Source: Pseudomonas phage HPP-Temi. From it: DNA of 64,000 nt. This document shows, piece by piece, positions 10,264 through 52,698 of this stretch. The DNA is taken from the sequence record PP968062.1; one strand, 5' to 3'. Position 1 is the first letter of the stretch; each line of letters begins with the position of its first letter. The translations under genes and the position numbers were made by a program. A model generated the notes under the pieces. That model saw nothing but the letters and a program-made list of their open reading frames with translations, was not told the origin of the DNA and made no database searches.

Positions 10264-10295
10264 TATCACATTTGTAATATACGTTTCAAATGGAT
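10264..10295 (-). promoter_or_regulatory. putative phage early promoter, TTTGAAAcgTATATTACAAatg (minus strand)
   Basis: One of 4 near-identical copies of TTTAAA-N3-TATATTACAA, about 30-40 nt upstream of the first small gene of an operon. Confidence 0.5.
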
Positions 10296-10319
10296 TAAAA
10301 TGTACATTCGAATGAGATA

Positions 10320-10346
10320 AAGGAAAGGGCTCCTAAGAGCCCATCC
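10320..10346 (-). terminator. rho-independent terminator (gggctc-ctaa-gagccc plus a U-rich tail on minus)
   Basis: After the stop of gene 10349..10630. Confidence 0.55.
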
Positions 10347-10348
10347 AG

Positions 10349-10630
10349 TTACAGCTTGTTGAGGAACTTGCGGATCTCTTCACGCAGCTCGCGCAGAGTT
10401 GCGGTCATGAGGATCTTTTCTTCTGCATCGCTGATCAGCCTTTCAGCCAGCCCTTCCAGTTCGATCTTGCGTTCGTCACTGGTGTAATGAGTCGGCAGAC
10501 GATCGTTTGCATCGCGCAGTTGTTGCAGAATTTCTTCCGCGGTGTTTTCGTCGGTCCAGGTGATAGCGATCATAGAGAGAACGCCACCGATGAGAACGCA
10601 GCCGAGACCTTTAGCGATATTGGAAAACAT
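10349..10630 (-). CDS. membrane protein, 93 aa
   Basis: ORF; N-terminal TM. Confidence 0.5.
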   Translation of the reverse strand: MFSNIAKGLGCVLIGGVLSMIAITWTDENTAEEILQQLRDANDRLPTHYTSDERKIELEGLAERLISDAEEKILMTATLRELREEIRKFLNKL

Positions 10631-10658
10631 GGTAAATCCTTACAGTTGGAAGTATATG

Positions 10659-10859
10659 TTAAGAGGTTGCTTCTTCGGGAGTAGCTTCGGTCGGTTCCGA
10701 TTCCGGAGTAGCGGGCGCTTCGGTTTCAGCCTCGGGTTCTGTGGCGGGGGTTTCAGCTTCCACCGGTTCCGCAGACAGGGTATCATACAACTTGTAAGCA
10801 GCGGTACCCAGAGCGAGGACAGCTGCAACAGCACCAGAGGCGATCAGAATCTTTTTCAT
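10659..10859 (-). CDS. small protein, 66 aa, with an N-terminal signal/TM segment and a P/E/A/T-rich acidic tail
   Basis: ORF. Confidence 0.5.
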   Translation of the reverse strand: MKKILIASGAVAAVLALGTAAYKLYDTLSAEPVEAETPATEPEAETEAPATPESEPTEATPEEATS

Positions 10860-10873
10860 GGGCGGTTTTCCTT

Positions 10874-11203
10874 TTAAGGCAGGTCTTTGTATATGACCTG
10901 TTTGATGTAATGGTCGATCCGCGGTTCAGCGGTCTTCCTGATTGGTTCGTATTCCTTGGAGAGGATTACGGTTACTTCCTCCCAACAAGCATCACGTAAT
11001 AACTCGTAACGCTTCTCGGGAGTTCCAACAAGGTACTGGCTCCTACGGAGCAAGACACAGTGATAGCTATCAATAATCTTACCAGCATCATTAACAACCT
11101 TGTTCACCATGTCGATATGGCGCTGCATCAGATAGGCAGTTCCAGCACAACAGGCTACAACCACGCCAGTCACTACAGCGCCGATGACGTAGACGGTTCT
11201 CAC
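10874..11203 (-). CDS. membrane protein, 109 aa (GTG start)
   Basis: ORF; N-terminal TM; GTGA coupling. Confidence 0.5.
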   Translation of the reverse strand: MRTVYVIGAVVTGVVVACCAGTAYLMQRHIDMVNKVVNDAGKIIDSYHCVLLRRSQYLVGTPEKRYELLRDACWEEVTVILSKEYEPIRKTAEPRIDHYIKQVIYKDLP

Positions 11204-11295
11204 GAACCTACTACTTCGTCGTAGATGGCACCTGCAATGTTCATTGCCATGATACCAACGGTTACCACGAAGACGGTCTTGAAGAGAGTGTTCAT
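11200..11295 (-). CDS. tiny hydrophobic peptide, about 31 aa (MNTLFKTVFVVTVGIMAMNIAGAIYDEVVGS), not in the ORF track
   Basis: Hand-translated; ATGA-coupled to its neighbours. Confidence 0.3.
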   Translation of the reverse strand: MNTLFKTVFVVTVGIMAMNIAGAIYDEVVGS

Positions 11296-11402
11296 ACTTG
11301 TTCTCCTTGAGCAGCGTTGAAGACTTCGTCTACAGCCCAGCAGGCAGCGTTGACGACGATGATGCAAGCAGCGAGTTTAACACAGAAACGTGCAAGGTCC
11401 AT
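11292..11402 (-). CDS. tiny hydrophobic peptide, about 36 aa (MDLARFCVKLAACIIVVNAACWAVDEVFNAAQGEQV), not in the ORF track
   Basis: Hand-translated; SD AAGGAG; first gene after an early-promoter-like motif. Confidence 0.3.
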   Translation of the reverse strand: MDLARFCVKLAACIIVVNAACWAVDEVFNAAQGEQV

Positions 11403-11429
11403 GGTGAATCTCCTTGATTTGATTGGCTA

Positions 11430-11460
11430 TTATCACACTTGTAATATAGCCTTTAAATTG
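11430..11460 (-). promoter_or_regulatory. putative early promoter, TTTAAAggcTATATTACAAgtg (minus)
   Basis: Second copy of the motif. Confidence 0.5.
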
Positions 11461-11476
11461 GTTTGAATGTAATCGG

Positions 11477-11911
11477 TTAAACTACCGACTTGCGGGTAAT
11501 GCGTTCGATCAGGTTCTGATCAGTGATGAAGTGACCCAGTACACGACCGATGATATCATCGGCCATGTGTTCGTTGTGGATGTTCACATCAGTGCACAGG
11601 TTGTTGATCAGGCCAGCTTGGCGCTGAAGACCTTGAGTGTTAGCGATGGACTTCTTGCGATATTCCTTGATCACTTCAACGAACTGACGTTCACCGGTAA
11701 TGAAGCGACTGTTCAGACTGGAATAACGCAGGATGTTTTCCATCTTGCCGATCATGTTGTCCATGGTCGACATGTGCCACTTCCAGATATCGGACTTGAT
11801 ATCCTTGGCCAGTTCACGTTGATGGTTCATGTAGATGGCATAAGACATGTAAGCGATGAAGGCGATTACACTCAGGGCTACGATTACGTTGATTGCGATA
11901 TTCATTTTCAA
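11477..11911 (-). CDS. membrane protein, 144 aa (N-terminal TM)
   Basis: ORF; preceded by a hairpin plus TTTATGTCGCT. Confidence 0.55.
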   Translation of the reverse strand: MKMNIAINVIVALSVIAFIAYMSYAIYMNHQRELAKDIKSDIWKWHMSTMDNMIGKMENILRYSSLNSRFITGERQFVEVIKEYRKKSIANTQGLQRQAGLINNLCTDVNIHNEHMADDIIGRVLGHFITDQNLIERITRKSVV

Positions 11912-11934
11912 TTTCCTTTTGGGTTGGAGTGAAG

Positions 11935-11972
11935 CGACATAAAGCCCTGATCGGAATGACCAGGACTTTTAA
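11935..11972 (-). terminator. imperfect hairpin with a CATAAAG ... CTTTATGTCGCT flank, downstream of the macro-domain gene
   Basis: Motif family member; weaker stem. Confidence 0.35.
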
Positions 11973-11978
11973 GTTTGG

Positions 11979-12452
11979 TTAAGCAAGGGCCGCCATCCAG
12001 GGCGGTACAACGACCACCATCTCGTTTGGGATATGACCGCTGAATAGTTCTAATGCTTGTTTCACATCAGGCCATTTCAACATGCCGTTTCCGCAACCGA
12101 GCGGGGGTACAACGATCTTCCACTTAGGGTCGATCCCATCTTCTACATCAATGTTGTCGACGATCCATTGAAGACCGTCATTGATGTAGCTTAACTGTGA
12201 ATCATCTTGCCACCGATCTTTAGTCGGGAACATCATGTAACGTTTACCATCATCACCTAGATAGATGGCTGGGTTACCGATTGTGATGATACGGTACTTG
12301 CAGTCATGCTTGTACTTCTGATACAGCTCGGGGAACTTATCGCGAAACCTCTCGGCTAGACCAGTTCCCATTACGCCTCGGGTGTTAACAGTGATAAGGT
12401 AAAGATCCCCAGGCTCTTTAAAGATGTCTTTACCTATTACGAATTCAGCCAT
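11979..12452 (-). CDS. macro-domain protein (ADP-ribose binding/processing fold), 157 aa
   Basis: ITVNTRGVMGTGLAERF matches the macro motif N-x-x-N-x-x-L-x-GGGV, and VVPPLGCGNGML matches the second glycine-rich macro motif. Confidence 0.55.
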   Translation of the reverse strand: MAEFVIGKDIFKEPGDLYLITVNTRGVMGTGLAERFRDKFPELYQKYKHDCKYRIITIGNPAIYLGDDGKRYMMFPTKDRWQDDSQLSYINDGLQWIVDNIDVEDGIDPKWKIVVPPLGCGNGMLKWPDVKQALELFSGHIPNEMVVVVPPWMAALA

Positions 12453-12521
12453 AGTGAATGGCTCCTTTGCCCTACAAAAATCTAATGGTCATGAGACCAC
12501 AACTCATCAGATTGTGCAAGA

Positions 12522-12686
12522 TTAGGCGAACTCGTTTACCGCCTTTTTTACTGCTATAGTTAGGGTAATTGCAGCGGTTATCATCGCGAGTCCAGCGGTT
12601 GCATATTGGAGCAGTTCACGGTTGTGCGCATACTCGCGTCTGGATTTCTCGTTGTCTTCGTGGGACTTTTTGTGATCGTAGAACAT
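12522..12686 (-). CDS. small TM protein, 54 aa (MFYDHKKSHEDNEKSRREYAHNRELLQYATAGLAMITAAITLTIAVKKAVNEFA), not in the ORF track
   Basis: Hand-translated and verified; SD AAGGA. Confidence 0.45.
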   Translation of the reverse strand: MFYDHKKSHEDNEKSRREYAHNRELLQYATAGLAMITAAITLTIAVKKAVNEFA

Positions 12687-12695
12687 GATGTATCC

Positions 12696-12838
12696 TTAGA
12701 GACCGTTAAAGATCAAAGTGAGAATCAAAGCAACTGCAAAGGTAGCGATTACGCCTTCGAGTGTAATCCAGCTCGGAGGTGTGTTGGGGTCATTACGCTT
12801 TTCACGGGGGAACATTTCTTCCTTAGCTTGTTCTTGCA
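12696..12838 (-). pseudogene. small ORF (29 aa) that may be a frameshifted small TM protein
   Basis: ATG with an AGGTG SD right after an early-promoter-like motif. The frame stops after 29 codons, but the +2 frame continues into a clean TM segment (SWITLEGVIATFAVALILTLIFNGL) that has no start of its own. Confidence 0.25.
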
Positions 12839-12846
12839 TAAAGCAC

Positions 12847-13278
12847 CTAATAGAACTGGTTTATTCCCTCTTGTGATATAGGGTTTAAAATGCTTTGAAT
12901 GCAAGGTGGACATTCACGCAGTTCTATAATCAACGCTTCTATGTTACCTTCTTCATTACAATACGTTTGTACATTAGTTATTTCCCCATTTAGACTATTG
13001 AATGCTAGCCTGTGGTGATGATACAGATCTCTGAAGTGCCCTTCAAAGTAACTAGCCGATACCGGATAACGCTGGAGTTCCATTAGGATGTATTGATAAC
13101 CCTTATTGAACTCTTGGGCATTATGGTTGTAAATGAAGTTGTGTTGCAGTTTGATGTATTCAGTTGCCAAAGAGTACAGATGGTTTATTACATCCATGTT
13201 GAGGTCAATGAACCCCTTTAAAGATCCAATATAGTTGTATGACCATACGTGGTCAATACGAAAGAGCACGTTCTGCAT
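12847..13278 (-). CDS. hypothetical protein, 143 aa
   Basis: ORF; overlaps the promoter-like motif region at its 3' end. Confidence 0.5.
   Translation of the reverse strand: MQNVLFRIDHVWSYNYIGSLKGFIDLNMDVINHLYSLATEYIKLQHNFIYNHNAQEFNKGYQYILMELQRYPVSASYFEGHFRDLYHHHRLAFNSLNGEITNVQTYCNEEGNIEALIIELRECPPCIQSILNPISQEGINQFY
12862..12892 (-). promoter_or_regulatory. putative early promoter variant, TTTAAAcccTATATCACAAgag (minus)
   Basis: Third copy, with one mismatch. Confidence 0.45.
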
Positions 13279-13287
13279 ATGGTCCTA

Positions 13288-13322
13288 CCTAAATAAAAAC
13301 CCACCCCAATTAAGGGGTGGGA
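13288..13322 (-). terminator. rho-independent terminator (cccacccc-aattaa-ggggtggg plus UUUUUAUUU on minus)
   Basis: Classic intrinsic terminator ending the 4-gene operon 18368 to 13310. Confidence 0.75.
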
Positions 13323-14695
13323 TCTATACCGTCTTCTGTTACTTCGAAACGGTTAATGAAAACGCCCAGCGTTACAATACCGACGTGGCGATTGACTGTG
13401 GCCCCAGCGTCAGCACTCTTACGTTGTTCGTTTACACCTAATAACACACCGTGGTATGTTTTAACCTTGTTATCAGAGATCGTCTGAAATTTGACAGGCA
13501 TCCCAGGATACAGAAGATCCGGATTACCATAAGTCCATTCGAGTTTAATCTCTTGTCCCTGTTTCCTAGCCATATCGCTGTATTGCTTGAACGGGTTAGA
13601 AGTCAACCGATCCTTAGCCCAGCGTACATTATTGAAACCGGTATCCAGATCCTTCATCTTGACTTCAAATAAGTTAGTAGCCCGATCAACGAGCATCTTA
13701 TTATCTTTATCAATAGCAAAGTCCTGGAAAATTTTACGTGCATCACCAAAGCGGAACGAGTTACCGTTCTGAATCTGCTCTGCAAGGCCACTATCAAGCG
13801 AACTAGCGTCACCCGTGGCCAAGACAGTAATGTGTCGCATCGTGTTTCTAAACGTCTTTTCGGCGCCTTTATAGCGGTCGTTAGGAACGTTGATCAGGTT
13901 GAGTACTTTCGTATTCTTACCGTATCGAGTTGTATCGTAAAGAGGATAGAAATAGATGATCTGGTTCTGGATATATCGACCCATTCCAGTTGCATAGATT
14001 CCACCTTCTTTATCTTGAAGGAACCTGTGAACATCCTTCAGAGGCATCCCATCGGGAATGATAATTTGGTTACGTTCTTCTTGGCTATAACCATCGGCTA
14101 CATCCATAGCAATTAAACGTTGATCATCTGCCCCACCTACCAATTGACCAAACTGAGTCCAGATAGACTGCAAGGCATTCATGGTAGTTGTAATGCGATA
14201 CGTGGTACCGCAGGTAACCATCATCATTTTGTACGTCAGTTCATCTACTAACTGCATCTGAACTTTAATCATACCGATTTGGTTCATCGCCTCACGAGAT
14301 TTCAGGTTAGAGTGTTTACCGGATAGTGCCGGGTTATCATCACCACTAACAGAAATAAATCCACGATAACGCTTTGTAACAGCCTTACGTTCAACATCAC
14401 GTGTAGAGATAGTATCGAGCAGAGGAAGCTCGGACAAATCCACCTGTAGATTATCACGGTAAGGAACGATGTCATGAACGTAGTCACCATAACCGATCAG
14501 AAATTGCACTTCACGAAAATCACCTAACTGGCCACTCCCATAGTCCCTCTGTAAATACAGAAAATCGAGACGGATGGGAGTAATCCATTTTTTGTTAGCG
14601 AGGATCTTAATCTCATTACGGAAGTTAGCGTAGCTTTCGCCGATCTCAGTTACCTGCTCTACTTCACGCATTAATAGCGTGCTATCGACAGACAT
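13310..14695 (-). CDS. hypothetical protein, 461 aa (probable late/virion protein)
   Basis: Long ORF; last gene of the late operon. Confidence 0.65.
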   Translation of the reverse strand: MSVDSTLLMREVEQVTEIGESYANFRNEIKILANKKWITPIRLDFLYLQRDYGSGQLGDFREVQFLIGYGDYVHDIVPYRDNLQVDLSELPLLDTISTRDVERKAVTKRYRGFISVSGDDNPALSGKHSNLKSREAMNQIGMIKVQMQLVDELTYKMMMVTCGTTYRITTTMNALQSIWTQFGQLVGGADDQRLIAMDVADGYSQEERNQIIIPDGMPLKDVHRFLQDKEGGIYATGMGRYIQNQIIYFYPLYDTTRYGKNTKVLNLINVPNDRYKGAEKTFRNTMRHITVLATGDASSLDSGLAEQIQNGNSFRFGDARKIFQDFAIDKDNKMLVDRATNLFEVKMKDLDTGFNNVRWAKDRLTSNPFKQYSDMARKQGQEIKLEWTYGNPDLLYPGMPVKFQTISDNKVKTYHGVLLGVNEQRKSADAGATVNRHVGIVTLGVFINRFEVTEDGIDPTP

Positions 14696-15267
14696 TATTC
14701 GGCCTCCACAACGTAACGCTCAATCTGATCAACGATAGATACGTAAGGTTTCAACTTACCATCAACTTCAGCACGACCTTGCAACCACTTGTTAGTAGAT
14801 GCCAGGTTCCGACGACGGTTCATTGCTACCAGAGAGTCAAAGATTTGACTACGTACGTCTTCACGCGGTTCCAGCTTCTTAGCCAGTTCGTATACCTCAA
14901 TTGCCAAAGCTTCGAATAAACGAAGATCTTCAATTGGAGGGAATCCATCTGGATGTGCATGGAATAGAGTTTGTTCACGCCAGTCACCCAGATGCTTCTG
15001 AATATCAGAATAGATCTGAGCGCAGTCTTTATAGTTAACCAGGCCAACCGTGTAACCTTCACCTAGTAACATTGCCATGCCAGCCGCAGTCTGTTGACCG
15101 CGGGACATGTGCATTGCCCGTTCCCGGTCGACTTGTTTGTCGCCAGTTACGTTGATGTGGTTATTACGGAGGTAGTTGGTACTATAAGCTGCAAGGTCTG
15201 GGACAACAACTTCATAGCGGAGATGGAACAAACGCCATGCCGCAGTGTATCGTTCACAGAGTTGCAT
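14695..15267 (-). CDS. hypothetical protein, 190 aa
   Basis: ORF; stop/start overlap. Confidence 0.6.
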   Translation of the reverse strand: MQLCERYTAAWRLFHLRYEVVVPDLAAYSTNYLRNNHINVTGDKQVDRERAMHMSRGQQTAAGMAMLLGEGYTVGLVNYKDCAQIYSDIQKHLGDWREQTLFHAHPDGFPPIEDLRLFEALAIEVYELAKKLEPREDVRSQIFDSLVAMNRRRNLASTNKWLQGRAEVDGKLKPYVSIVDQIERYVVEAE

Positions 15268-15273
15268 TGGAGA

Positions 15274-16680
15274 TTACCTCGTTGCGTATTTAAGTAGAGC
15301 AATCAGGACAGGGTGATAATAGAAGCGTTCCAAGTTATCCCAAGAGAGGCAGCACTTAGTAACTTTCCTCAACTGGTTCATGTCCATCGGTTTGCGGTTG
15401 ATCATTTGCCAAGCTAGCATTTCCAACTTTGTTTGTAGCTTAGCGTCTTCGGTGTAGAATGCTTCGGTGAATACGTAGAAGTTATCACGTACTACTGGAG
15501 CGATATCAGCTGGTCGATCCCAAGCACTATCTTGTTTGATAGTGTTCGGGTCAGCACGCTTGAACCATTCAAGATCTCGTTCTTCCTGAGTCTTGTATGG
15601 CGTCTGTGGACGACGGGGTTGTCCTTCATGGAAAGGAATACCTTCCGGACGAGCACGGTCTTCACCATCGTACTGGGAGTCTACATCAGTAGGAGCATCC
15701 ATCGGGAATACGAAACGTGGGATACCGGTATAACCGATAGCTTGAAGTTCAGGACGCCAGCGAGAGATTCGTGTAGCTACAAGATGAGCGCGCTCAGTAG
15801 AACCACACAGACGTGTAGCGTCTTGCCGGAGAATAGCATCCCACACAGTAGGCTGTTTCATTACCGGTTCAGACATCACGTTCAGAAGCTTAACGTTCAT
15901 CATCCGACGGTCAGCTTTCATATCAACCATCATTATCATTGCTTTAGTAACGAAGTGGTCGTATGTCTTCATCAGCTGATCCGGTACAAGGAACGTACTG
16001 TGCTCAACAGAGAAGAAGTCACTGATATAACGACGGATGATTTCTTTACGGAGAGCAACGAAGTCTTTCTGATCTTGTTGTTCTTGTTCCGTAACGAAAG
16101 GACCGCAACCACTGGTCAGAGAACTGGCCGAGTAGTAATAGGTCAGAATGGTTTTGCGTTCAAGGTCAGCAATCTGTTGTTCAGTCAGTTTGCTAACCAT
16201 CTTCCATTCAATGGCGTAAGTCGAATCACGCAGGAAGGTTTCACGACGAGCAGCCGTGATAGTAAACAGACCCAGTACGCCGTCACCGATGTTACCGATG
16301 AACATGTCTCCGACGTTAGGTACTAGGAACGGATACGTGTGACCAGCACCAGTTACCGAGAACGTACGAATGCGTTCATCCTGAGAGATATCCAGAGACT
16401 GGTTTACTTTCAGGTCCATTCCTTTAATGCAGCGATACTGCTGATAAGGAGGCTGACGGTGCAGGGCTAGCGGAGTCGGTTCTTGAGTCGTGTCCAGAAC
16501 CTGAGAGAAGTACGTGACGTTCCAGTTAGAGCCGTTGATCCATGCAAGCATAGAACTCTTCGGTACGAACTTGGTGTCAATGGCAATACCCCTATAAACA
16601 TCGGGACGTGCTTTAACTTCGATCGGGTTAACTTCTGGACTCTGAGGAGCGACTTCTTCCTCGTCTACAAAAAGAGACAT
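15274..16680 (-). CDS. hypothetical protein, 468 aa
   Basis: Long ORF. Confidence 0.65.
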
Positions 16681-16682
16681 CG

Positions 16683-18368
16683 TTAACTCCTAATGTCGGA
16701 AATGATGTGTGCAAACAATACGTTCAATGGACCGACTTTATGTTGATCTATATAACCACCACCTGGTCCAACTTCTGCAATGATCTTGTCTTGCTCTTCA
16801 CGAGCTTTAGCAATATCACCCCATTTCACGATACCACGTTTAAACGTATTAGGTAATTCAGACGTGATAGGTGTAGTACCTTCACCTGGAGCTTCTGGGT
16901 TTTCTGGACGAGGGCCACTTAGGCCCAGTAGTTTCATCTTCTCGATCGGGTTACGACCAATACTAACACGGAACAACCGGAACAGACTCCAACAAGTAGT
17001 TGGATAACGGCGAATCATCTCCCAGTACTTATCATGGATACCATAGAAGTTCTTAGAGAGACTGATTTGGATGTGGTAATACTTCAGCGGATCTAATGGG
17101 AATGTTGTTCTCAGAAGAGTAGTTCCAGGATCAATCGTCATCGGTACACGTAACCGTTCGTTATTTTGGTACAGACGGATTTCAAAGAAAGAACCATCTG
17201 CAATTGCAGCTGTTCCTAATGTCTTAATAAACTCAAGCCAATACGGGTTGAATGTAAACCGACCTAGGTTCTTGAAGTCCATCAGAGATGTCAGGTCATC
17301 CTTACTCAAACACAGCAGTCCGTTAAAGAACGTGAAGCGGTGAATAGGAATCTGATCGGTATGCCAATCATCGACATCTGGATGTTGAATGTAGGGCAGC
17401 CCCATGTCACGCATCAGAAGGAACTGATGGTCAAGGGTACCACGCAGAGAAGTTGTCTTACGATCAACAGCCTGATAGTTCTGATAACGATATTCAGGAC
17501 GGAAGATCTTCGGGATCACACACTGGTTCATCAGCATCGGGTAAGATACCCGCATGTGAGTTGGCCGCTCGTAACGACAGAGATAACTGAAGTTAACAGT
17601 GTAGCCACCAGCATTGTCAGAAGACTTCTGTGGAGTATCAGGAGACGAACTGAAATCGAACCAACCTACCACGTCAACTTGTCGTTCGTAGATAGTCAGC
17701 GTCGGATGGGTATCGATAAGAGTAGCCATCTCAGTCTGCGGTTGGCACCAATGAGCTTCCATCCATTCTTGGAAGGATTGATCACTTGGCCAATTAGACT
17801 TCTGCATCGTATCGTACAGACCTTTCATAAGGCCCAGTAGAGACGGAGGAACGTTGTAGTGATAAGTCAACGACATAGTCATCTCAGCACCACCAGCAGA
17901 ACAACGAATACGTTGATCGTCTAACCAGCGTTGAGCCAGTACTACGTTAGGTGCCTGATACTCGATGTCAATCCTGAAATCAACAAAGCGTCGAATAGGA
18001 CGAATTGTAATATCGTGAGTCTCGTCTACAAATAGAGGGAAGTTCTCGTTATTGTAAACAGAGGTGGAAAGAGTAAAGTTCTCTTCCGCTATTTCTTCAT
18101 AGGACACTACAATCCTTTCTTCTGGATCGAAGTGTACTGCGTCAGCTGCATCACAGCAGTTACCGAACATACCGTCGTTCATTGGAACTGTATCGATACG
18201 ACCTGGGAGTAGAACTCTGGTTGCACCGGGTAACTGCATCATGGTAGCAATCTGTCGAACAGCATCAACAGACACCTTCCGCATTACGGTTTCGTATACG
18301 TCTGGCAAGGGGATAGTTGCATGGGGCATGGTAACCACCTCATGGTTTAAGATCATAAGATCCGGCAT
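16683..18368 (-). CDS. hypothetical protein, 561 aa
   Basis: Long ORF; preceded by a hairpin plus TTTATGCCGG. Confidence 0.65.
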
Positions 18369-18400
18369 AAAGCCCTGCCTTTTTGGGCAGGGCGATATGT
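18363..18400 (-). terminator. hairpin (gccctgcc-tttttg-ggcagggc) with GGCATAAAG / CGATATG flanks
   Basis: Motif family member, right after the stop at 18407. Confidence 0.55.
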
Positions 18401-18406
18401 TGTTAC

Positions 18407-40294: not shown

Positions 40295-40354
40295 GAGAGT
40301 GGCCTACTCGTCAGTTTTATTAATCATAAAGTAAAGCTCGAATGAGAGATTACT

Positions 40355-40400
40355 GGGGTGATTAATACTACGTGTTTTAAGATTTAAAAAGGAACTCGAA
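40355..40400 (+). promoter_or_regulatory. possible early-type promoter variant (TTAATACTAC) in the divergent intergenic region
   Basis: AT-rich; about 30 nt before the ATG at 40401; one-off from TATATTAC. Confidence 0.3.
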
Positions 40401-44066: not shown

Positions 44067-44143
44067 CATATCGATGGAAACGCCGCGGAGGATACGAATG
44101 TTCCTCCGTTGGTGATAAGCGGTTCTCTGCTCTTAATGCTCAA

Positions 44144-44469: not shown

Positions 44470-45122
44470 TAAGCTTTACCAATCAAATCTAGAACAGGTC
44501 GCCAACCATAGTTAGCCATACCTGAATCAGCTATTTCGGTCGTGGTACCGATTAGCTGGTTATACCCGCGTGCGCGGTGAAACTGTGGATCAGCAGCGGA
44601 TTCTTCTTGGACCCAGCAAGCACTTCCTACTACAGAGGGAGCACACCCCAATTCAACATTCGTGAAACTAGCTAATACTGGATTATAGTTAGCTGACCTA
44701 CCCACGCCTAGTGGATACATCCAACGCTCCCACTCGCCACCCCAACTTATCGTGTTAGATACAACATTCTTAGTTGTACCGGTCATAACTCGAACACGAA
44801 ACTGATGTCTACCGATTTGGATGATCTTACCAAAGATAAGATCTTTCGCATTTAGTTCAGTCCATCGAATGTTGTTTCTCAATTGCTGTTTAGCAATGTA
44901 GATAAGTTTCCCGTTTTCCACCATTTTTAACCAACCGCCCGCGGTTGCAATAGGCGTACCTTCGGTGATACCAACGAGGTTAGCAAAAGCCAAAGGTCCA
45001 GGTAAGCCTTCTACAAACTCACCATAAAAGCCATGGAGAGAACTACCAGAGATAAGTTCTTGCGGGCCAGGTGGTAATGTGTCATCGTACATCTTAAGTA
45101 CGGAAAGCAATGACTCGAACAT
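44469..45122 (-). CDS. hypothetical protein, 217 aa
   Basis: ORF. Confidence 0.55.
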   Translation of the reverse strand: MFESLLSVLKMYDDTLPPGPQELISGSSLHGFYGEFVEGLPGPLAFANLVGITEGTPIATAGGWLKMVENGKLIYIAKQQLRNNIRWTELNAKDLIFGKIIQIGRHQFRVRVMTGTTKNVVSNTISWGGEWERWMYPLGVGRSANYNPVLASFTNVELGCAPSVVGSACWVQEESAADPQFHRARGYNQLIGTTTEIADSGMANYGWRPVLDLIGKA

Positions 45123-45156
45123 ATGTAATCCTGCTCTTCTAAAAACCTATACCGTT

Positions 45157-45193
45157 GACGGCATAAGCCCTCCCCGAAGGGAGGGCGTTATGT
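45157..45193 (-). terminator. hairpin (gccctcccc-gaa-gggagggc) with GGCATAAG / GTTATG flanks
   Basis: Family member. Confidence 0.55.
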
Positions 45194-46639
45194 TTATTGT
45201 ACTTGTTGGAAGTACTGGAGCAGCAGAGGCTGGCGCTTGGTCGGGAATAGGGATACCAGACTCGGAACGTCGTACTGGGTACGAGCTTCTTTGTTCTCAT
45301 CAGCGAAGATGAAGAACAGAGTCAGAATCTGGATATGGGATTCCTGCACACCACCTTGTACGCTAAGGCCGTCGGTGAAACGGAAAGCGTGGCTGTCATC
45401 AAACAGACCAGGAGATTGGCGGTTCTCGGTAATGAACTTACGAACGATCTCCATGCCATTCTTGAAGCCAATCGGATCTTCAAGGTTGATAACATAACGA
45501 ATAACGTTGTCGAGTTGCTTCTGGGCCATGACACCAGTTTGGGGAGTCAAGGGTTTGCCAGGAGCACAGATCTCTTTGTATTTCTTGAGAGTTTCTTCGA
45601 TGTAGGATTGGTTCACTTCGGTAAGTCCTTCGTAGGAGAGTTGGATACGAACAGCTTCGACGTCTACTTTCGGAGCAGCCGCAGTCGGAATAGCACCGGT
45701 CAGATGAATGGTTTCAGTGGTTTGACCAGTTTGAGCTTTGTAAGCCAGGATAACGTCTTCAGGAGCATTGCTCTTGCTAACCAGAATCAGACGCTCTTTC
45801 AGTTCAACTGCAAGAGACGGTTCACTGGTAGCACCTTCAGGCCGGATCTCACCAAGAGCCCAGCTTTCGAGTTCTTGAGTAGTCCACTGAGTTGCCTTAC
45901 GAGCAAAACGAGTGATGTCAGATTTCCAAGCACCTTTAGAAGTTTTGTCGGGAACAATACCGCTAACAAGGAACTCTTTGCACTGCTGTGGATTCCAAGC
46001 GAGGTCGAGAGTAGCTTCACGGCGTTGATGTTCAACAATAACTTCTTTCAGAACATTGTAACGAACATCTTCAACAAGCTCACCTTTGATATACTGTTCG
46101 AGTTCTTCTTTAGTCCAACCCGATACCGGAGTATCAACTAGAGGTTTGACTTCCTCAACTACCTCTGGTTCAGAAATAGCTGTGGTAGCTTCTTCTCGAA
46201 GAAGATCGACTAGAGCAGGAGTAGGTTCTGGATCAGCCAGCTCTTCTTCTGTTTCACCTTCGGGAGGAAAATCAGTAGTCTCTTCGAGATCACTTTCTTC
46301 TTCGCCTTTGGGATCATCGCCATCTTCGGCTTCAAGACGAGCTAGCTCCATCTCGGATTCCGTGTCGGTATCGAACTTATCAACAACTTCACTGCAAGTC
46401 AACATCCGACCGTCGTCATCATAGAACGCCTCACGGTGGAGTGCAGCTAGAACAGGAGCTACGACCGCTGCTACTTCGTTGTCATCATGATCTTCGAAGG
46501 CAGCTTGTAGATCTTCAAAAGAAAGGGGACCGTATTCAGCCGGAGGCTCTTGGGGAGTTTCCGGAATAACGGAGGTAACAGGCTCTACAGGTTTAGTAAC
46601 GGTAGGGATAGAGAAACCACGATTGCGATTTTTAGCCAT
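45194..46639 (-). CDS. acidic hypothetical protein, 481 aa (D/E-rich N-terminal half)
   Basis: Long ORF. Confidence 0.6.
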   Translation of the reverse strand: MAKNRNRGFSIPTVTKPVEPVTSVIPETPQEPPAEYGPLSFEDLQAAFEDHDDNEVAAVVAPVLAALHREAFYDDDGRMLTCSEVVDKFDTDTESEMELARLEAEDGDDPKGEEESDLEETTDFPPEGETEEELADPEPTPALVDLLREEATTAISEPEVVEEVKPLVDTPVSGWTKEELEQYIKGELVEDVRYNVLKEVIVEHQRREATLDLAWNPQQCKEFLVSGIVPDKTSKGAWKSDITRFARKATQWTTQELESWALGEIRPEGATSEPSLAVELKERLILVSKSNAPEDVILAYKAQTGQTTETIHLTGAIPTAAAPKVDVEAVRIQLSYEGLTEVNQSYIEETLKKYKEICAPGKPLTPQTGVMAQKQLDNVIRYVINLEDPIGFKNGMEIVRKFITENRQSPGLFDDSHAFRFTDGLSVQGGVQESHIQILTLFFIFADENKEARTQYDVPSLVSLFPTKRQPLLLQYFQQVQ

Positions 46640-46659
46640 GGGTATTTCCTAGTTTGTGA

Positions 46660-46700
46660 ATAGTCAAAGAATTAGGGGAATTGGTAAGATTCCCCTTAGT
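46660..46700 (-). terminator. rho-independent terminator (aggggaat...attcccct plus a U-rich tail on minus)
   Basis: After the stop of gene 46702..48045. Confidence 0.55.
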
Positions 46701-46701
46701 C

Positions 46702-48045
46702 TTAAGAGAGTCGGCGGACAGGGTCCCATTTAACAGTCTTCAGGGTAGCACTGTGCATCTTCTTCAGAAAGATACTCAGGAAGCGACCACCCACCCCAGC
46801 GGCAGCTGCGGGAATACCGTTTGGGTTCTCAGCAAGAGCTTTACCTGCACAAGTAGCACAGATGTTTTTGTCTCGACCAAGAATACCTTTCTCAACGTCG
46901 CGACCGGTCTTACAAGTCATTGGCCCACGAACATCGATAATATCCCCCATCAGTCCATCAATGTTTTCAGATGTAATCAGAATGGATTCCCCATTCTTAA
47001 CCATCGTGTAACCGACAAGTTCTTTTGCATTGAACTTATCAACACGGGTCGGAACACCGATATGAGTTTTGCAGTCCGGTTCGATAATCCGTACAGTACC
47101 AACCATTCGATAAATCGTCTTAGTCGATTCACCACCCAGAGCAGTCTGAGCACCACGGCTATAGGAACCATAACGCAGAGAGTTGTTCATTACAGGCATG
47201 TGGTCTGTATCGATACCTTCTTCGAGAGATTTAGAGATCAACTCAACAGAAGTACCATCAGAGAACGGAGATTCACCACCAAATAAATAGTGAACTTTCT
47301 TACGGACACCACCGAAGAGCTTAGCGTGTTTAGCATCGTAGAATTCATACGACTCGTCATCAGCCAAATACCCTTCATCCAGCTTGATCAGTTCGTTACC
47401 GATCTTAGCCACGATGGCTGGATCAGTAAGCTGGTCTTTATACTGTTCCAGAAGAGCAGCACGGACCTTATCGCGATCAGGGTGGGCAGTCATCGACTTA
47501 CGAGTTACCGACGTCACAAGGCTGTCTGCATACGCAGGAATAGCCAAGCAATGGTCAGCGAACATTAGATACTGCCAAACATAGATCTTACCGTCAGGAG
47601 CACGTTCAGTAACGTTACCATCCTCACGGTCATCGATCATTCGGTCCAGGAGTTCGTTCTCAATCTTGGACGGACTGAAATAGCCAGTCTGGAATGGGAA
47701 GATATCTCCGAAAGGAATTACCAAGCAAAGGTAGTTAACGAATACGTTACCATAGGTAGTGCGTACAGGCTCGGTACCTTTATAGTTCTCGATTTCACCC
47801 GGTTGAAGGATGAATTCATCGCGGAAGTGCAGAGGTGCACGTCCTTCAATGTAATCTTCGATGTAGATCTTTTCATCGCCATTAGGCATGTAGAACCACA
47901 TCCGCCCTTCACCGAAGTGGGGCTTGTACGGCATGTCGGGAACGTCGTCATTATTAAGAACAACGTTGAACAAACTGTTCATCCAAGCACGCTTCTTACA
48001 GAGACCAGCTTTGATCCCTAAAAGGAAATAGTCACGCAGTTTCAT
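46702..48045 (-). CDS. RNA polymerase beta-prime-like fragment (bridge-helix to trigger-loop region), 447 aa
   Basis: [20 protein letters not shown] resembles the RpoC bridge helix [31 protein letters not shown] resembles [41 protein letters not shown]...AAAGVGGRF resembles [21 protein letters not shown]...[11 protein letters not shown]. Confidence 0.65.
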   Translation of the reverse strand: [447 protein letters not shown]

Positions 48046-48916
48046 TTAGCTGCCCCATTTTGATTTCGATCTCACGGATCTCACGTTCCATAATCATTCG
48101 TTCCATGTCGTTCTCAGTGTATTCATCGAGAGACATCTTGACAGTACGGAAGATACCATCCAGGGGAAGATCGGAGAAGAATGCCAGGCCAACCATTTCA
48201 TAGGCTGCTGCTTGAGCACCTTTATTATCGAGTGAGTCCATGCTACTGGTCAGGAGTTCTAGCCAAGGACGACCGATACGCATACCTGCATTAGAGAGTT
48301 CCAGAACCATACTGAACTTATCACGACCCAGAGTAGATAGGAGACGGTTCAGTACACGGATACGAGATACAGGTGCGGTATATTCATCGACATGACCACG
48401 AGTCATCATTGTATCCTGAACGAGTCCTTTCAAAGCCTCAACAAACGATACAGATACTTCTTGAATCAATGGCCACATCTCATCAAAAGATTGACGTTCA
48501 AACATTGGTACAAGATGAGCAAGGATCTCTTCATTATCGAAGTCTCCTTGTAGGATCAATTCAATCTGATCCGGAAGAATATAGTGAGGTATGCCCAAGA
48601 TGGTACGAACTACAGCAAGACGTTGTTCTTGAGTAGCTTCATCCGATACCTTAATTTCATGGGCAGCCAGGACTTGATCATGTGCCACACGAATGATGTC
48701 GTCGATACGACCGAGTAACATCATTGTGTCAGCATAGTCATCCGCAATCGAACAGACTGTATGCAGTTCATCCAGAGCTGCCGAGTAATCCATTTCCTCT
48801 AGGGAAGCTACACAGTCGAGCATGATTTCTTTACGTTCTTCCATCACCAGAGGAGTGAGGATACTATCAAGCATTTCTTTCATTGGAATTATCCTGTATA
48901 AATGAATATCTAACAT
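48032..48916 (-). CDS. possible RNA polymerase beta-prime fragment carrying a degenerate catalytic-loop motif (GDFDNEEILAHLVP, against NADFDGDQMAVHVP), 294 aa
   Basis: Directly upstream of, and overlapping, the beta-prime fragment; only a short motif match. Confidence 0.4.
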   Translation of the reverse strand: MLDIHLYRIIPMKEMLDSILTPLVMEERKEIMLDCVASLEEMDYSAALDELHTVCSIADDYADTMMLLGRIDDIIRVAHDQVLAAHEIKVSDEATQEQRLAVVRTILGIPHYILPDQIELILQGDFDNEEILAHLVPMFERQSFDEMWPLIQEVSVSFVEALKGLVQDTMMTRGHVDEYTAPVSRIRVLNRLLSTLGRDKFSMVLELSNAGMRIGRPWLELLTSSMDSLDNKGAQAAAYEMVGLAFFSDLPLDGIFRTVKMSLDEYTENDMERMIMEREIREIEIKMGQLNETA

Positions 48917-48969
48917 ACGGTTAGGTTGCTGGTATTCTTTATAAACCGTGAAAAGTTACGTTTCCTGTT

Positions 48970-49007
48970 ACATCTATGTTACTACACTATTTCCCAATGG
49001 AGCTTCA
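48970..49007 (+). promoter_or_regulatory. possible early-type promoter variant (TATGTTACTAC), 35 nt before the gene at 49008
   Basis: One mismatch to TATATTAC; divergent AT-rich intergenic region. Confidence 0.3.
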
Positions 49008-49604
49008 ATGACTAAGTTTAGTGAAATGCCGTTTAATCTGATGGACACTGCACATCATCCAAAGCCTACTCCTGAAGATGAAGCGAGACTCTCTGAAGCC
49101 CTTGATAAAATCTTTTCCCGTAATCCGCAAATGGAGCACAATCAAATGACCGCACTAACCCCGAAAGAACAACTGGACCAAGCAGTAGAAGCCTCCGCAG
49201 TTGCTGCTCAACAACTGATAAAAGAAGATGGCTGGGCTATCCTTCGTGAACTGTATCGCGAGACGGCTATTGCCCTCAACGCTACCTCTATTGTTGTTCT
49301 CCCGGCTTTGGACCGTCGTGAAGAAATCCTGGGCAAACTCAGTGATCCTGAAGGCTTCTCGAAAGACCTGCAAAACTGCATGGCTGACGTTGAGCAGATG
49401 ATCAACGCCCTGGGAGCTCTTCGTGTTCTTCATGTAGACAAAACTGGTATTCCGGAACTGGCTGATCTCGATCTGATCGGTAAGCTAACTCTGGGCTATG
49501 CAAATCTCCAACACAAGATCGAAACAGGTGTTCAGCCTCTGCTGCTGGCTCTGGTCGCCAAAATGCAAGAAGCTGGTGTAGACACTGTTTCCTTCGTGAA
49601 ATAA
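49008..49604 (+). CDS. hypothetical protein, about 198 aa (ATG at 49008 preferred over the track start at 48948)
   Basis: SD GGAG; the track start lies inside the divergent promoter region. Confidence 0.55.
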   Translation: MTKFSEMPFNLMDTAHHPKPTPEDEARLSEALDKIFSRNPQMEHNQMTALTPKEQLDQAVEASAVAAQQLIKEDGWAILRELYRETAIALNATSIVVLPALDRREEILGKLSDPEGFSKDLQNCMADVEQMINALGALRVLHVDKTGIPELADLDLIGKLTLGYANLQHKIETGVQPLLLALVAKMQEAGVDTVSFVK

Positions 49605-49615
49605 GGTAATACAAA

Positions 49616-51217
49616 ATGCAAGAGCTTGATATGGATAAAGAAGACAATTACCCAGCTGAGGGTAATTGGGAACAACAAGCTGGTGCAGCAGAACAGGGAC
49701 CTACGGGTCCCACTCTGCCAGATGCCCCTGCTTCGGAAGAAGTAGCCTCTACTCCTCCTCCGGAACTTCCTCCTCTGGATATCGATCAGAAGGAAGTAAG
49801 TTTTACTGAATCTCGTAAGTGCTTCAGTGAGGCAATTCCTGGTTCCGCCTCTCTGATGAGTTTCATCCTTGAAAATCCCATCACCTTCAACAAAGTTCTG
49901 GAACGCCACAGTGCTCTCCTGAACGGAATGCAACAAGGTGATCTTACCACTACTAATAGCGATCGCGATTGGCTGATCTCTCTGGTGTCTGGTATGAACC
50001 ACACCAACCTTGACCCGACTCCTATCGGCGGCACTGAACGTCAAGGTTCTCACTGGCAACAAGGTATCTCGGCTCACGATGGTGACAATCTGATTCGTCC
50101 GGGTCGTCCTTCTCAGAAGATCGATCGTAATAAACGTCACAGCAAAGAAGAGCTCCTGGCTTACCTAGCTAAGAAGTCTGGTCTGGGTGCTACCTACGAA
50201 GCATTTATGCCTCGTTCTGGTATCTGGCTGCGCCTGCGTGCTCCGACTCTCTCTGAAGTCGTAGCTCTGCAAACCGAGATGCAACAAGTTAAACTGCGTC
50301 TGGGTATGCAAACCAAAGGCATGTCGTTCTCGAACGCTGGTTCCGTAATGATGGACGCAATGACTAACCTGGCTCTGTCCTGTGTTATTGCTTCTAACAA
50401 GTCTTACGTAACTCCGTCTGACCTGGAACACGAACTGTCGATCTTCGACGAAGCACTGTTGCACCACGCACTAGCTTCTACCATGTACATCGATGGTTTC
50501 AACTACGACGTACCGTGTATCGCTGATCCGGATAACTGTACCGCTCGCATCACTGCTAAGCTGAACATGTCTTCGATCGTTTGGTTCGATAACACTGTAT
50601 TCAGTACTGAACAACGTAAGTTCATCGCTAAGAAATTTGCACCTGCTACTGATGAAGACTTCAAAGCTTATCGTGAAGGCTTTGGTATCGGTGGTAAGCG
50701 AGTGTTCTGGTTCGGTGACATCGGTGTTCGTCTGGCTATCCCGACCATCGCTCAACGTAAGATGGCTGCTTCCCAGTGGTCTCAGACTCTGATCGAAATG
50801 TCTCAAGGTACTTTCAACGAGCCACCTCATGGCATACAGCGTTCTGCTTACATTGATAAGCTGAGCAAAGCTACCATCGCTATGCAATACGCTCACTGGG
50901 TCGATGCTATCTACGAGAAAGACGATGAAGTAGAAGACTTTGACGACCAACTGATTTCCGATGATGAAGAGATCATTAGTGACTATCTGGCGAATACCTT
51001 GAGTGACCCTCAGTACTCCGATGACTTCTTTGAATCGGTTCATGAATACACTAACTCCTGTGTACTCGCAATCGTTGCTCTGCCTTCGCATAACTGCAAG
51101 CAGTGCAAAGGTCCTCAAGGCCAGGCATTCAACGAACGATTCCCGCACCTTGTACCGCTCGATCTGATGGCAATATTTTTCACGTTGGCGGGCCAGAAAG
51201 CCAAGCACCTGGAGTAA
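49616..51217 (+). CDS. hypothetical protein, 533 aa (P/E-rich N-terminus, acidic C-terminal segment, C-terminal CKQCKG)
   Basis: Long ORF with an AAGGTAA SD. Confidence 0.65.
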   Translation: MQELDMDKEDNYPAEGNWEQQAGAAEQGPTGPTLPDAPASEEVASTPPPELPPLDIDQKEVSFTESRKCFSEAIPGSASLMSFILENPITFNKVLERHSALLNGMQQGDLTTTNSDRDWLISLVSGMNHTNLDPTPIGGTERQGSHWQQGISAHDGDNLIRPGRPSQKIDRNKRHSKEELLAYLAKKSGLGATYEAFMPRSGIWLRLRAPTLSEVVALQTEMQQVKLRLGMQTKGMSFSNAGSVMMDAMTNLALSCVIASNKSYVTPSDLEHELSIFDEALLHHALASTMYIDGFNYDVPCIADPDNCTARITAKLNMSSIVWFDNTVFSTEQRKFIAKKFAPATDEDFKAYREGFGIGGKRVFWFGDIGVRLAIPTIAQRKMAASQWSQTLIEMSQGTFNEPPHGIQRSAYIDKLSKATIAMQYAHWVDAIYEKDDEVEDFDDQLISDDEEIISDYLANTLSDPQYSDDFFESVHEYTNSCVLAIVALPSHNCKQCKGPQGQAFNERFPHLVPLDLMAIFFTLAGQKAKHLE

Positions 51218-51282
51218 TCAACGAGGACCCCCGTCATAGTCGTCTGACAATTAACTTGGATGACTATAACGGGCACGTCACA

Positions 51283-51678
51283 ATGAACTCTTTCGGTCGT
51301 AGGACATCTAACGGTAAGAGTGCATTCGATGAACTCGTGCGGACGCTAGGAGCCGTAAGGCCAGTTATCGCTGAGATGATGACGCGCAAGGCTTATCATA
51401 AAGACTATGGTATTTTCGATCACGATTCAGATGAAGCAGATCCTTTGGACTTGGTTCGCCTGCATCCTAAAGAAAACATCATTGAAGGTGGACCTGAGCG
51501 TACTTGGATTCGTAAATTCGTTAACTACAAGATCAATGAGATCTACGGAGTGTCGTTATTAGACTTCTTCGAGATTCCATTTAACCATTGCCTGTTTATG
51601 GTTGAACTCGCTGAGTCAAAAGCTCTGCAAGGTAGTATTCAGGCTAGACAGCTTGAGAAAGATCTTGGACTGAAATAA
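51283..51678 (+). CDS. hypothetical protein, about 131 aa (start uncertain)
   Basis: The track ORF 51103..51678 overlaps the previous gene; the first ATG after its stop is at 51283, with a weak SD. Confidence 0.4.
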   Translation: MNSFGRRTSNGKSAFDELVRTLGAVRPVIAEMMTRKAYHKDYGIFDHDSDEADPLDLVRLHPKENIIEGGPERTWIRKFVNYKINEIYGVSLLDFFEIPFNHCLFMVELAESKALQGSIQARQLEKDLGLK

Positions 51679-51731
51679 AAAAAAAATAAGGCATACGCCC
51701 TCTCCCGAAGGAGAGGGCTATATGTCGTCTT
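51676..51731. terminator. A10 run plus hairpin (gccctctcc-cgaa-ggagagggc) plus TATATGTCGTC; bidirectional terminator at a convergence point
   Basis: Family member; shares the aaaaaaaaaataa-gccctctcc architecture with the 1335-1385 element. Confidence 0.6.
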
Positions 51732-51969
51732 ACACTTGCGCTTCGATCATCATGAAAAGACCACCCAAGAAGAGGGTTAACAACGCAACGATTGCAGCGC
51801 CCCACATGAGGACAGTGCAGATTGTGTTGATACGGTCCAACATGATTCGATCTTTCTTGGGTAGACGAGTACGACGGATATCGTCATCGTCTTTCACCAG
51901 TTTGGCTACAAACAAAGAGCCTGCAATAACTGCAAGCGCGATCCACCAGACGAGCATGATGGCTTCCAT
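51730..51969 (-). CDS. small membrane protein, 79 aa
   Basis: ORF; 2 TM. Confidence 0.5.
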   Translation of the reverse strand: MEAIMLVWWIALAVIAGSLFVAKLVKDDDDIRRTRLPKKDRIMLDRINTICTVLMWGAAIVALLTLFLGGLFMMIEAQV

Positions 51970-51982
51970 GATGAACTCCTTG

Positions 51983-52243
51983 TTACTTCATAAACATCCA
52001 GGGTGGCATCTGTAGCGTCGTGTAGACACTAACCAAAGCCGTGAGGAGAAGCACTAGGTAAATAGCAAAGCTAATAGCCCAGCTAACACAGAGGAACATA
52101 CAGAAGTACTTCCAATTGGGAAGCCACTTGCATACGCCCATTACGAACAGCCATGACACGATATAACCAATCAGGAACATCAGTCCTGGGAAGCTAATCG
52201 TAGCGTAGATAAAGGCAATTGGGTTGGTGAACATCAGATCCAT
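51983..52243 (-). CDS. small membrane protein, 86 aa
   Basis: ORF; 3 TM. Confidence 0.5.
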   Translation of the reverse strand: MDLMFTNPIAFIYATISFPGLMFLIGYIVSWLFVMGVCKWLPNWKYFCMFLCVSWAISFAIYLVLLLTALVSVYTTLQMPPWMFMK

Positions 52244-52251
52244 GTTGGTCC

Positions 52252-52440
52252 CTATTTAGGAAGCATGTCAAAGAGATGGTATCCTGCGTAGCCTGTAACA
52301 GCGATTATGACCATTCCAATAAGAACCGTTACGATTCTATCCGACGGGGTCTTACCGCTTGCTACAAGCCCGTAGAACGTCGTTAAGCCTCCTATCAACA
52401 ACAGGGTGAAGAAGGCAAAGACTATTACGGTCCAACTCAT
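52252..52440 (-). CDS. small membrane protein, 62 aa
   Basis: ORF; 2 TM. Confidence 0.5.
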   Translation of the reverse strand: MSWTVIVFAFFTLLLIGGLTTFYGLVASGKTPSDRIVTVLIGMVIIAVTGYAGYHLFDMLPK

Positions 52441-52443
52441 AGG

Positions 52444-52644
52444 TCAACTCAGGAAGATGATGTAGAAGGCAGCGATCACCAGCAAGATTACCGCCAGGAT
52501 TGCCGCCAGTGGACCGGAGATATTGAAAGCTTTCGCCAACTCGATCGGCATGTGGGATGTTTTAACACCCAATGCGTGCTTCAGGCAATACACGGCGAAC
52601 AGGATAATGATCAGAAAGCAGAAAACGTTAGACAGAAATGCCAT
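52444..52644 (-). CDS. small membrane protein, 66 aa
   Basis: ORF; 2 TM; SD AAAGGAG; early-promoter-like motif upstream. Confidence 0.5.
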   Translation of the reverse strand: MAFLSNVFCFLIIILFAVYCLKHALGVKTSHMPIELAKAFNISGPLAAILAVILLVIAAFYIIFLS

Positions 52645-52669
52645 GGTATTACTCCTTTAGAGGGGCTAT

Positions 52670-52698
52670 ATTCATTGTTGTAATATAGGCTTTAAACC
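52670..52698 (-). promoter_or_regulatory. putative early promoter, TTTAAAgccTATATTACAAcaa (minus)
   Basis: Fourth copy of the motif. Confidence 0.5.

Follow-up and report, generated by a model that had tools for sequence, protein, structure and literature searches.

An AT-rich motif centred near -10 is reported before the early operons of every RNA polymerase-encoding jumbo phage (PMC7598289). For phiKZ, 28-32 early promoters have been described, with an extended -10 element that is preceded, upstream of -19, by a T-rich stretch (PMC8244752, PMC10914365), and a "consensus early promoter" is printed as tatattaaaaaaaatttaagatgtatattacaaatgtg (…tttaagatgTATATTACaaatgtg; also given as tatattaaaaaaaatttaagatgTATATTACaaatgtg) in supplementary file 1 of PMC12676376; phiKZ late promoters carry T-3 A T G+1 at the start, without upstream conservation (PMC7598289). 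The early promoters of 201phi2-1 are conserved at -10, -20 and -30 (PMC11512511), and those of AR9 follow the consensus AAATATATATTAT-(6N)-G, in which the G is the start site; a multisubunit polymerase that is carried in the virion, and requires no newly made protein, is credited with recognising them (PMC5312081). Here, we describe four minus-strand motifs in a stretch of 64,000 nucleotides (nt) from Pseudomonas phage HPP-Temi (sequence record PP968062.1; hereafter the window), which are very probably the early promoters used by a jumbo phage of the phiKZ family (Chimalliviridae), read by a virion-packaged RNA polymerase (RNAP).

The original prediction had reported four minus-strand copies of the motif, and all four are present where it had placed them. 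The pattern TTTRAA-N3-TATATYACAA (TTTRAANNNTATATYACAA) has 4 exact matches on the minus strand of the window, at 10272-10290, 11439-11457, 12871-12889 and 52678-52696 (sites 1 to 4), against a mean of 0.00 expected by chance (100 dinucleotide-preserving shuffles). The octamer that had been given as the core of every copy, TATATTAC, is found at sites 1, 2 and 4, whereas site 3 has TATATCAC, a variant also present at position 4166 of phiKZ and at 100520 of the related phage PA1C. Read on the minus strand, the element common to the four sites extends beyond the octamer and spans about 36 nt; its full form, from which sites 1, 3 and 4 deviate at few positions, is cATTCAAAccaaTTTAAAggcTATATTACAAgtgtG at site 2. 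Three blocks can be distinguished on the coding strand: cATTyAAA around -30, TTTRAA around -20, and TATATYAC from about -14 to -7, followed by AA. At all four sites, TTTRAA lies 3 nt 5' of the octamer, cATTyAAA lies about 12 nt further 5', and a G stands seven nt past the octamer (TATATYAC-N6-G). This tripartite layout and the G at +7 past the octamer fit the published descriptions of phiKZ, 201phi2-1 and AR9. Each site is co-oriented with the genes that follow, with the octamer starting 41-46 nt 5' of the first ATG (10235, 11402, 12839 and 52644) and the motif ending 31-36 nt before it, within the 25-40 nt originally proposed; a Shine-Dalgarno sequence precedes these ATGs. The octamer alone carries little of this information: TATATTAC is not enriched in the window (3 occurrences vs 1.44 expected, and at least 3 in 21 of 100 shuffles) and is near the composition expectation in whole genomes (24 vs 18.8 in PA1C; 42 vs 32.4 in phiKZ), and it was therefore discarded as evidence. 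The signal resides in the extended motif of about 36 nt with its three parts, together with strand and position. A full-text literature search for TATATTAC retrieved unrelated papers only, and an exact-pattern scan of IMG/VR was uninformative, with only scattered single matches in unrelated contigs among the matches listed.

Scoring with a matrix trained on 24 phiKZ sites only, the four sites rank at the top of the window (28.0 to 41.3 bits, Table 1), far above the maximum of 16.4 bits in 100 shuffles of the window, and there is no other significant match in the 64 kilobases (kb). Over the complete PA1C genome, the same matrix detects 28 sites that reach 15 bits or more, 28/28 on the main gene strand. 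Using a matrix built from 12 PA1C sites of the flavour that we call class A (described below), the window sites score 31-53.5 bits and the rest of the window at most 8 bits. The complete phiKZ genome has 31 occurrences of TATATYAC-N6-G, with 28 on the plus strand; these sites include those before PHIKZ054 and PHIKZ260, two examples of mapped transcription start sites (TSSs) in PMC8244752, and their number agrees with the published 28-32 early promoters (PMC8244752, PMC10914365). The core had been equated with the phiKZ early consensus, and TATATTAC is contained in the consensus printed in the supplement of PMC12676376, with which site 1 has TTTrAr-N3-TATATTACAAATGTG (or TTTAAR-N3-TATATTACAAATGTG) in common.

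All four sites have positional counterparts in PA1C, PhiPA3 and phiKZ (Table 1). In an anchored comparison with PhiPA3 and phiKZ, 53-73% of the motif columns are identical, as opposed to 27-40%, near random, for the ungapped flanks. Motif columns that are kept while the flanks are randomised are the footprint expected of a selected signal. This comparison bears on the idea that the four sites are copied DNA and not functional elements. On this view, a short cassette would have spread among small-gene modules by duplication or recombination, as with the promoter/stem-loop cassettes known from T4-type phages. The sites do border gene blocks that are differently arranged in phiKZ, where gp102-104 and gp010.1-015 lie 100 kb apart, a terminator hairpin precedes site 1, and the flavour of the motif's upstream part goes with that of its downstream part, all as such a cassette might show. 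However, the similarity ends at the motif edges, with unrelated leaders and downstream proteins; the fixed distance to the start codon and the strict co-orientation (28/28 in PA1C) are what a promoter predicts; and the survival of the motif columns from phiKZ to the window, amid randomised flanks, indicates selection on the sequence itself. Since a role in recombination would add to a promoter function without replacing it, we consider copying in place of function very improbable. Taken together, the exact matches, the strand and distance rules, the match to the consensus and the positional conservation argue for phiKZ-type early promoters, in agreement with the original assignment to the virion RNAP. 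A phiKZ-type late promoter does not fit, as the four sites have no TATG at the predicted start and have strongly conserved upstream blocks.

We propose that a multisubunit RNAP, which the virion carries and injects along with the phage DNA, would read the four promoters. Transcription would start at the conserved G seven nt past the octamer (Table 1), a position placed from this G and from the descriptions of AR9 and phiKZ, and the predicted starts would give leaders of 27-32 nt with a Shine-Dalgarno sequence. The four units would then express mostly small membrane proteins, together with a macro-domain protein and the homologs of phiKZ gp010.1-gp014. The window encodes a PHIKZ080 homolog, a predicted subunit of the enzyme that would read the four promoters; the genes for the other virion RNAP subunits are found in PA1C at 182980-188996, in a region beyond the 64-kb window. 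What we infer for all four sites is that the virion polymerase recognises them, where exactly transcription starts and that it does so early, and several points weigh against this proposal. Timing, start site and polymerase are all carried over from phiKZ, AR9 and 201phi2-1, and a literature search found no transcript data for PA1C or PhiPA3, including promoter mapping in PhiPA3. The phiKZ sites were equated with the published promoter list on three grounds, namely how many there are, the consensus in print and two examples given by name, and the source genome was scanned over 64 kb. Finally, a sigma-70 pattern can be read at site 2 as well (TTTAAA-17-GATAAT, TG upstream).

This last point raises the question of whether the sites might be host sigma-70 promoters, with the bacterial RNAP reading the AT-rich TATATT or GATAAT as a -10 and a TTTAAA-like -35. 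At site 2, the pattern has a TG before the -10 and matches at 9/12 positions, and TATATT is one mismatch away from TATAAT. Yet 1/4 sites, site 2, passed a sigma-70 scan, and loosely, the others lacking a -35/-10 pair at 16-18-nt spacing; the distance between TTTRAA and TATATT is 3 nt, not 17. Sigma-70 matches are not enriched in the site regions either (24 vs 21.0 ± 4.3; 9 vs 19.7 ± 5.6). The conserved columns, namely the octamer with its final C, the AA and the G at +7, deviate from the sigma-70 consensus, class-B relatives of the motif have no GATAAT, and phiKZ-family phages are reported to infect without need of the host polymerase and despite rifampicin (PMC13282480, PMC11512511). With one loose site, no enrichment and host-independent transcription, we rejected the sigma-70 reading as very improbable.

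In PA1C and phiKZ, two flavours can be told apart among the sites that carry TATATTAC. Class A, to which all four window sites belong, reads cATTyAAA-N4-TTTAAA-N3-TATATTAC-AA..GTGAtA, and class B reads (T)ACTAAAAAA..TTnAGATC-TATATTAC-N5-TG, often right after a terminator (GC hairpin and CTTTATGT). Both are conserved between phiKZ and PA1C, with roughly equal numbers in each genome, and the upstream flavour is coupled to an AA that immediately follows the octamer (PA1C, Fisher p = 2e-4; phiKZ, 2e-3). Class-B sites stand before the gp054 homolog (shell protein) and the gp068 homolog (non-virion RNAP subunit), and after class-B sites in PA1C, 2/11 first open reading frames (ORFs), and very few later ones, encode a predicted transmembrane (TM) helix. 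The published descriptions cited here handle early promoters as a single class, and nothing relevant came out of a literature search on phiKZ membrane proteins or immediate-early classes. It is conceivable, if rather doubtful, that the phiKZ family has two architecturally distinct, conserved flavours of early promoter that mark different sub-programmes. If so, class A would mark purely immediate-early units, transcribed from the injected genome, and class B would mark composite early-plus-middle units that stay on, such as those before gp054 and gp068. In PA1C, two full class-A promoters, at 261193 and 261243, stand in tandem 50 base pairs apart before one gene.

Besides the four sites, weaker variants had been predicted at three places. 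At 59085-59125, before the non-virion RNAP beta gene, a class-B-like site is found on the minus strand: at 59099 it reads caaaaaaataattttcacatcTATATAATcattctG, 41 nt before the RNAP-beta ATG (59058), and scores 23.0 bits with a PA1C class-B matrix (null maximum 20.1) and 11.6 bits with the phiKZ-only matrix. The predicted bidirectionality did not hold, the best plus-strand score over 59060-59132 being negative. The site is identical in PA1C, and PhiPA3 (53700) and phiKZ (63063) have TATATCAT at the same place; a class-B-like element whose core is degenerate therefore precedes the non-virion RNAP beta operon in all four phages, as TATATAAT in the window and PA1C and as TATATCAT in PhiPA3 and phiKZ. 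More TATATCAT sites are found in phiKZ before gp043 and gp053. In 201phi2-1, the homologs gp129 and gp130 are reported to use a middle promoter (PMC11512511). Because of the degenerate core and of the middle promoter of gp129/gp130, the early class of the 59099 site is uncertain; the TATATAAT/TATATCAT sites may form a separate promoter subclass, possibly of the middle class.

These observations bear on the further possibility that the non-virion polymerase uses the four promoters too, or instead, which would make them middle- or dual-class and their operons not strictly early. In its favour, PHIKZ054 transcription starts at a primary TSS with an early motif and at a secondary one with a middle motif (PMC8244752), the core at 59099 is degenerate, and the RNAP genes adjoining this site have 201phi2-1 homologs for which a middle promoter is reported (PMC11512511). 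By contrast, the four sites carry the full early consensus, with neither an AT-rich/TACT motif near -22/-24 nor a TATG at the start, and their scores match those of the best phiKZ-like sites. We thus regard use by the non-virion polymerase as unlikely, and favour recognition by the virion polymerase at sites 1 to 4.

The two other variants were not recovered: the best plus-strand scores at 40300-40400, where the region 40355-40400 had been named, and at 48920-49010, for the gene at 49008, are both negative, and neither region has an early-promoter-like sequence. The region around 49008 does have cTATGttac, which resembles the phiKZ late TATG element (PMC7598289). The early/late map that had been drawn for the window is therefore partly grounded: the four sites stand, two of the weak variants fail, the early class of the RNAP beta genes is uncertain, and the link to membrane proteins is local. 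Indeed, inside the window the motif does stand before clusters of tiny membrane proteins, as had been noted, but in PA1C only 4/12 class-A sites, the orthologous four, precede such clusters.

The predicted transcription units and the other features are collected in Table 1. Their ORFs mostly encode proteins with one N-terminal TM helix after sites 1-3, and with two helices in 4/4 cases after site 4 (Kyte-Doolittle scan). No function was obtained for the small proteins from Pfam or PHROGs, and the members of the site-4 operon that were searched have no Pfam or PHROG match. In the site-1 unit, the PHIKZ014 homolog is 80% identical to its phiKZ counterpart, which is described as expressed early (PMC11849849). 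The gp012-like TM protein of this unit has a sub-threshold Pfam match to RNA_pol_Rpb4 (E = 0.0073, 17 bits vs a cut-off of 25.6), probably noise. Site 2 directly precedes two very short ORFs (11295-11402, minus strand; 36 and 31 residues, one TM helix each), which are below the usual ORF cut-offs, yet are annotated in PA1C (34 and 31 residues). In the site-3 unit, the product of 11979-12452 matches Pfam Macro (PF01661, E = 3.5e-7) and is 61% identical to PHIKZ104. Site 3 itself falls within roughly the final 15 codons of the PHIKZ102-like ORF, at its 3' end, an arrangement common to PA1C and PhiPA3, and the phiKZ equivalent overlaps the end of gp102; the sequence would thus be under two constraints, one from the encoded protein and one from the promoter. 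Two further small proteins with two TM helices (about 90 and 109 residues) are encoded 5' of site 4 at 52692-53337 on the minus strand, right after the gp075-like helicase gene. As this membrane-protein cluster begins 5' of site 4, its first members would need read-through from the RNAP/helicase operon. Terminator-like hairpins, at 10342-10327, 51701-51688 and elsewhere, bound plausible transcription units.

Table 1. Predicted promoters, transcription units, terminator-like hairpins and phiKZ homologs in the window. Homologs were assigned to ORFs by tblastn against phiKZ; scores are in bits (PA1C class-A matrix / phiKZ-only matrix); UTR, untranslated region; aa, amino acids.
Feature	Coordinates	Strand	Description	Scores	Counterparts in relatives
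Site 1, predicted early promoter	10267..10302	-	CATTTTAA block, TTTGAA, N3, TATATTAC (10281-10274), AAATGT; predicted +1 G 10267; 32-nt 5'UTR to ATG 10235 (PHIKZ010.1-like, 51 aa, 1 TM)	45.6 / 39.5	PA1C 103113; PhiPA3 105894; phiKZ 4516 (before PHIKZ010.1)
Site 2, predicted early promoter	11434..11469	-	CATTCAAA, TTTAAA, N3, TATATTAC (11448-11441), AAGTGT; predicted +1 G 11434; 32-nt 5'UTR to ATG 11402 (36 aa, 1 TM)	53.5 / 41.3	PA1C 101951; PhiPA3 104734; phiKZ ~108063 (analogous position, just after macro-domain gene)
Site 3, predicted early promoter	12866..12901	-	CATTCAAA, TTTAAA, N3, TATATCAC (12880-12873), AAGAGG; predicted +1 G 12866; 27-nt 5'UTR to ATG 12839 (PHIKZ102.1-like, 47 aa, 1 TM)	48.7 / 30.8	PA1C 100520; PhiPA3 103735; phiKZ 106875 (before PHIKZ102.1)
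Site 4, predicted early promoter	52673..52708	-	TACTTAAA, TTTAAA, N3, TATATTAC (52687-52680), AACAAT; predicted +1 G 52673; 29-nt 5'UTR to ATG 52644	31.0 / 28.0	PA1C 61900; PhiPA3 60361; phiKZ 70339 (before PHIKZ076)
Class-B-like variant site	59085..59120	-	CAAAAAAATAATTTTCACATC, TATATAAT (59099-59092), CATTCT, G at 59085		
Site-1 operon	5982..10235	-	Inferred extent, up to hairpin 6001-5982; homologs of PHIKZ010.1, 011, 012, 013, 014 and small TM proteins		
Site-2 operon	10349..11402	-	ORFs of 36, 31, 109, 66, 93 aa, one predicted N-terminal TM helix each		Layout as in PA1C annotation
Site-3 operon	11477..12839	-	47-aa and 54-aa TM proteins, macro-domain protein 11979-12452 (PHIKZ104-like), 144-aa TM protein		
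Site-4 operon	51730..52644	-	Four small proteins (66, 62, 86, 79 aa), two predicted TM helices each		
Terminator-like hairpin	10327..10342	-	GGGCTCTTAGGAGCCC then TTTCCTTTAT; just 5' of site 1, would end site-2 unit		
Terminator-like hairpin	51688..51701	-	AGGGCGTATGCCTT then ATTTTTTTTT; directly after last gene of site-4 operon		
gp014 homolog	6823-8004	-			
gp013 homolog	8037-8639	-			
gp012 homolog	8813-9199	-			
gp011 homolog	9727-10068	-			
gp010.1 homolog	10080-10235	-			
gp104 homolog	11979-12452	-	Macro-domain protein		
gp102.1 homolog	12696-12839	-			
gp102 homolog	12847-13278	-			
gp080 (PHIKZ080) homolog	46702-48045	-	Virion RNAP subunit; 69% identity over 449 aa		phiKZ 75025-76371
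gp075 homolog	53355-54890	-	Helicase		
gp074 homolog	54947-56920	-	Non-virion RNAP		
gp071/073 homolog	56947-59058	-			
gp068 homolog	62508-63959	-			

In megablast comparisons, the window is 80-88% identical to the P. aeruginosa jumbo phages PA1C, PS119XW, BRkr and HHBS36_1, the closest records in the collection searched, with PhiPA3 more distant, and it resembles phiKZ at the protein level only. By these sequence relationships, the source phage is a member of the PhiPA3/phiKZ lineage and belongs to a different species from both the PA1C-like phages and phiKZ. A gp102-104-like block adjoins a gp010.1-015-like block in the window (about 10300-13300), in PA1C and in PhiPA3; in phiKZ, these blocks are about 100 kb apart (gp010.1-015 at 4.5 kb and gp102-104 at 106-108 kb). 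The block junctions coincide with site 2 and with site 1 and its terminator, which hints that promoter/terminator modules mark rearrangement boundaries. Elsewhere in the window, the segment 42001-44000 has a GC content of 0.41 vs about 0.46-0.48 and a GC skew of +0.12, and may be inserted or recently acquired.

In conclusion, a new relative carries an already well-described signal; the finding is real but ordinary, and leaves the knowledge of how phiKZ-family phages transcribe their genes unchanged. The gain is in annotation, with four predicted early units and nucleotide-level predicted starts in a PA1C/PhiPA3-like Pseudomonas jumbo phage. The small membrane proteins and the macro-domain protein are marked as likely first-wave products, which would be relevant to setting up the early infection vesicle and to countering host defences. 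For phage engineering, the motif elements might be taken up as ready early promoters, a use to which the phiKZ consensus has been put before (PMC12676376).

Compared with known systems, the four sites are like sigma-70 promoters in the AT-rich, -10-like hexamer TATATT and in the Shine-Dalgarno leader; unlike them, they have no -35 at the proper spacing, and their conserved positions extend past TATAAT and differ from it. With AR9 (PMC5312081), they share a TATATTA-type box, six unspecified nt and a G start. AR9 is, however, a Bacillus phage with uracil-containing DNA, its box ends in T and not in C, and its promoters have neither the TTTAAA nor the cATTyAAA block. As in 201phi2-1, an AT-rich motif lies about 10 base pairs before the predicted TSS, conservation falls at -10, -20 and -30, and the promoters stand before genes for hypothetical proteins, a comparison made by description and not by exact sequence, with only six early sites mapped experimentally in that phage (PMC11512511). 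Relative to phiKZ, the bases before the octamer are gcC or ccC in place of the cAG of same-flavour phiKZ sites, one window site uses TATATCAC where the printed consensus does not, and the promoters of the window lineage are known here from sequence alone, as opposed to those mapped experimentally in phiKZ. In all other respects compared, they are like the phiKZ early promoters: the core is TATATTAC, TTTAAR precedes it by three nt, AT-rich sequence reaches back to about -35, AAATGTG follows the core, and leaders measure about 30-40 nt. They also follow the same strand rule, occupy the same places (before gp010.1, gp076 and gp102.1, and after gp104) and are about as numerous per genome (28 sites in PA1C, vs a reported 28-32 in phiKZ).

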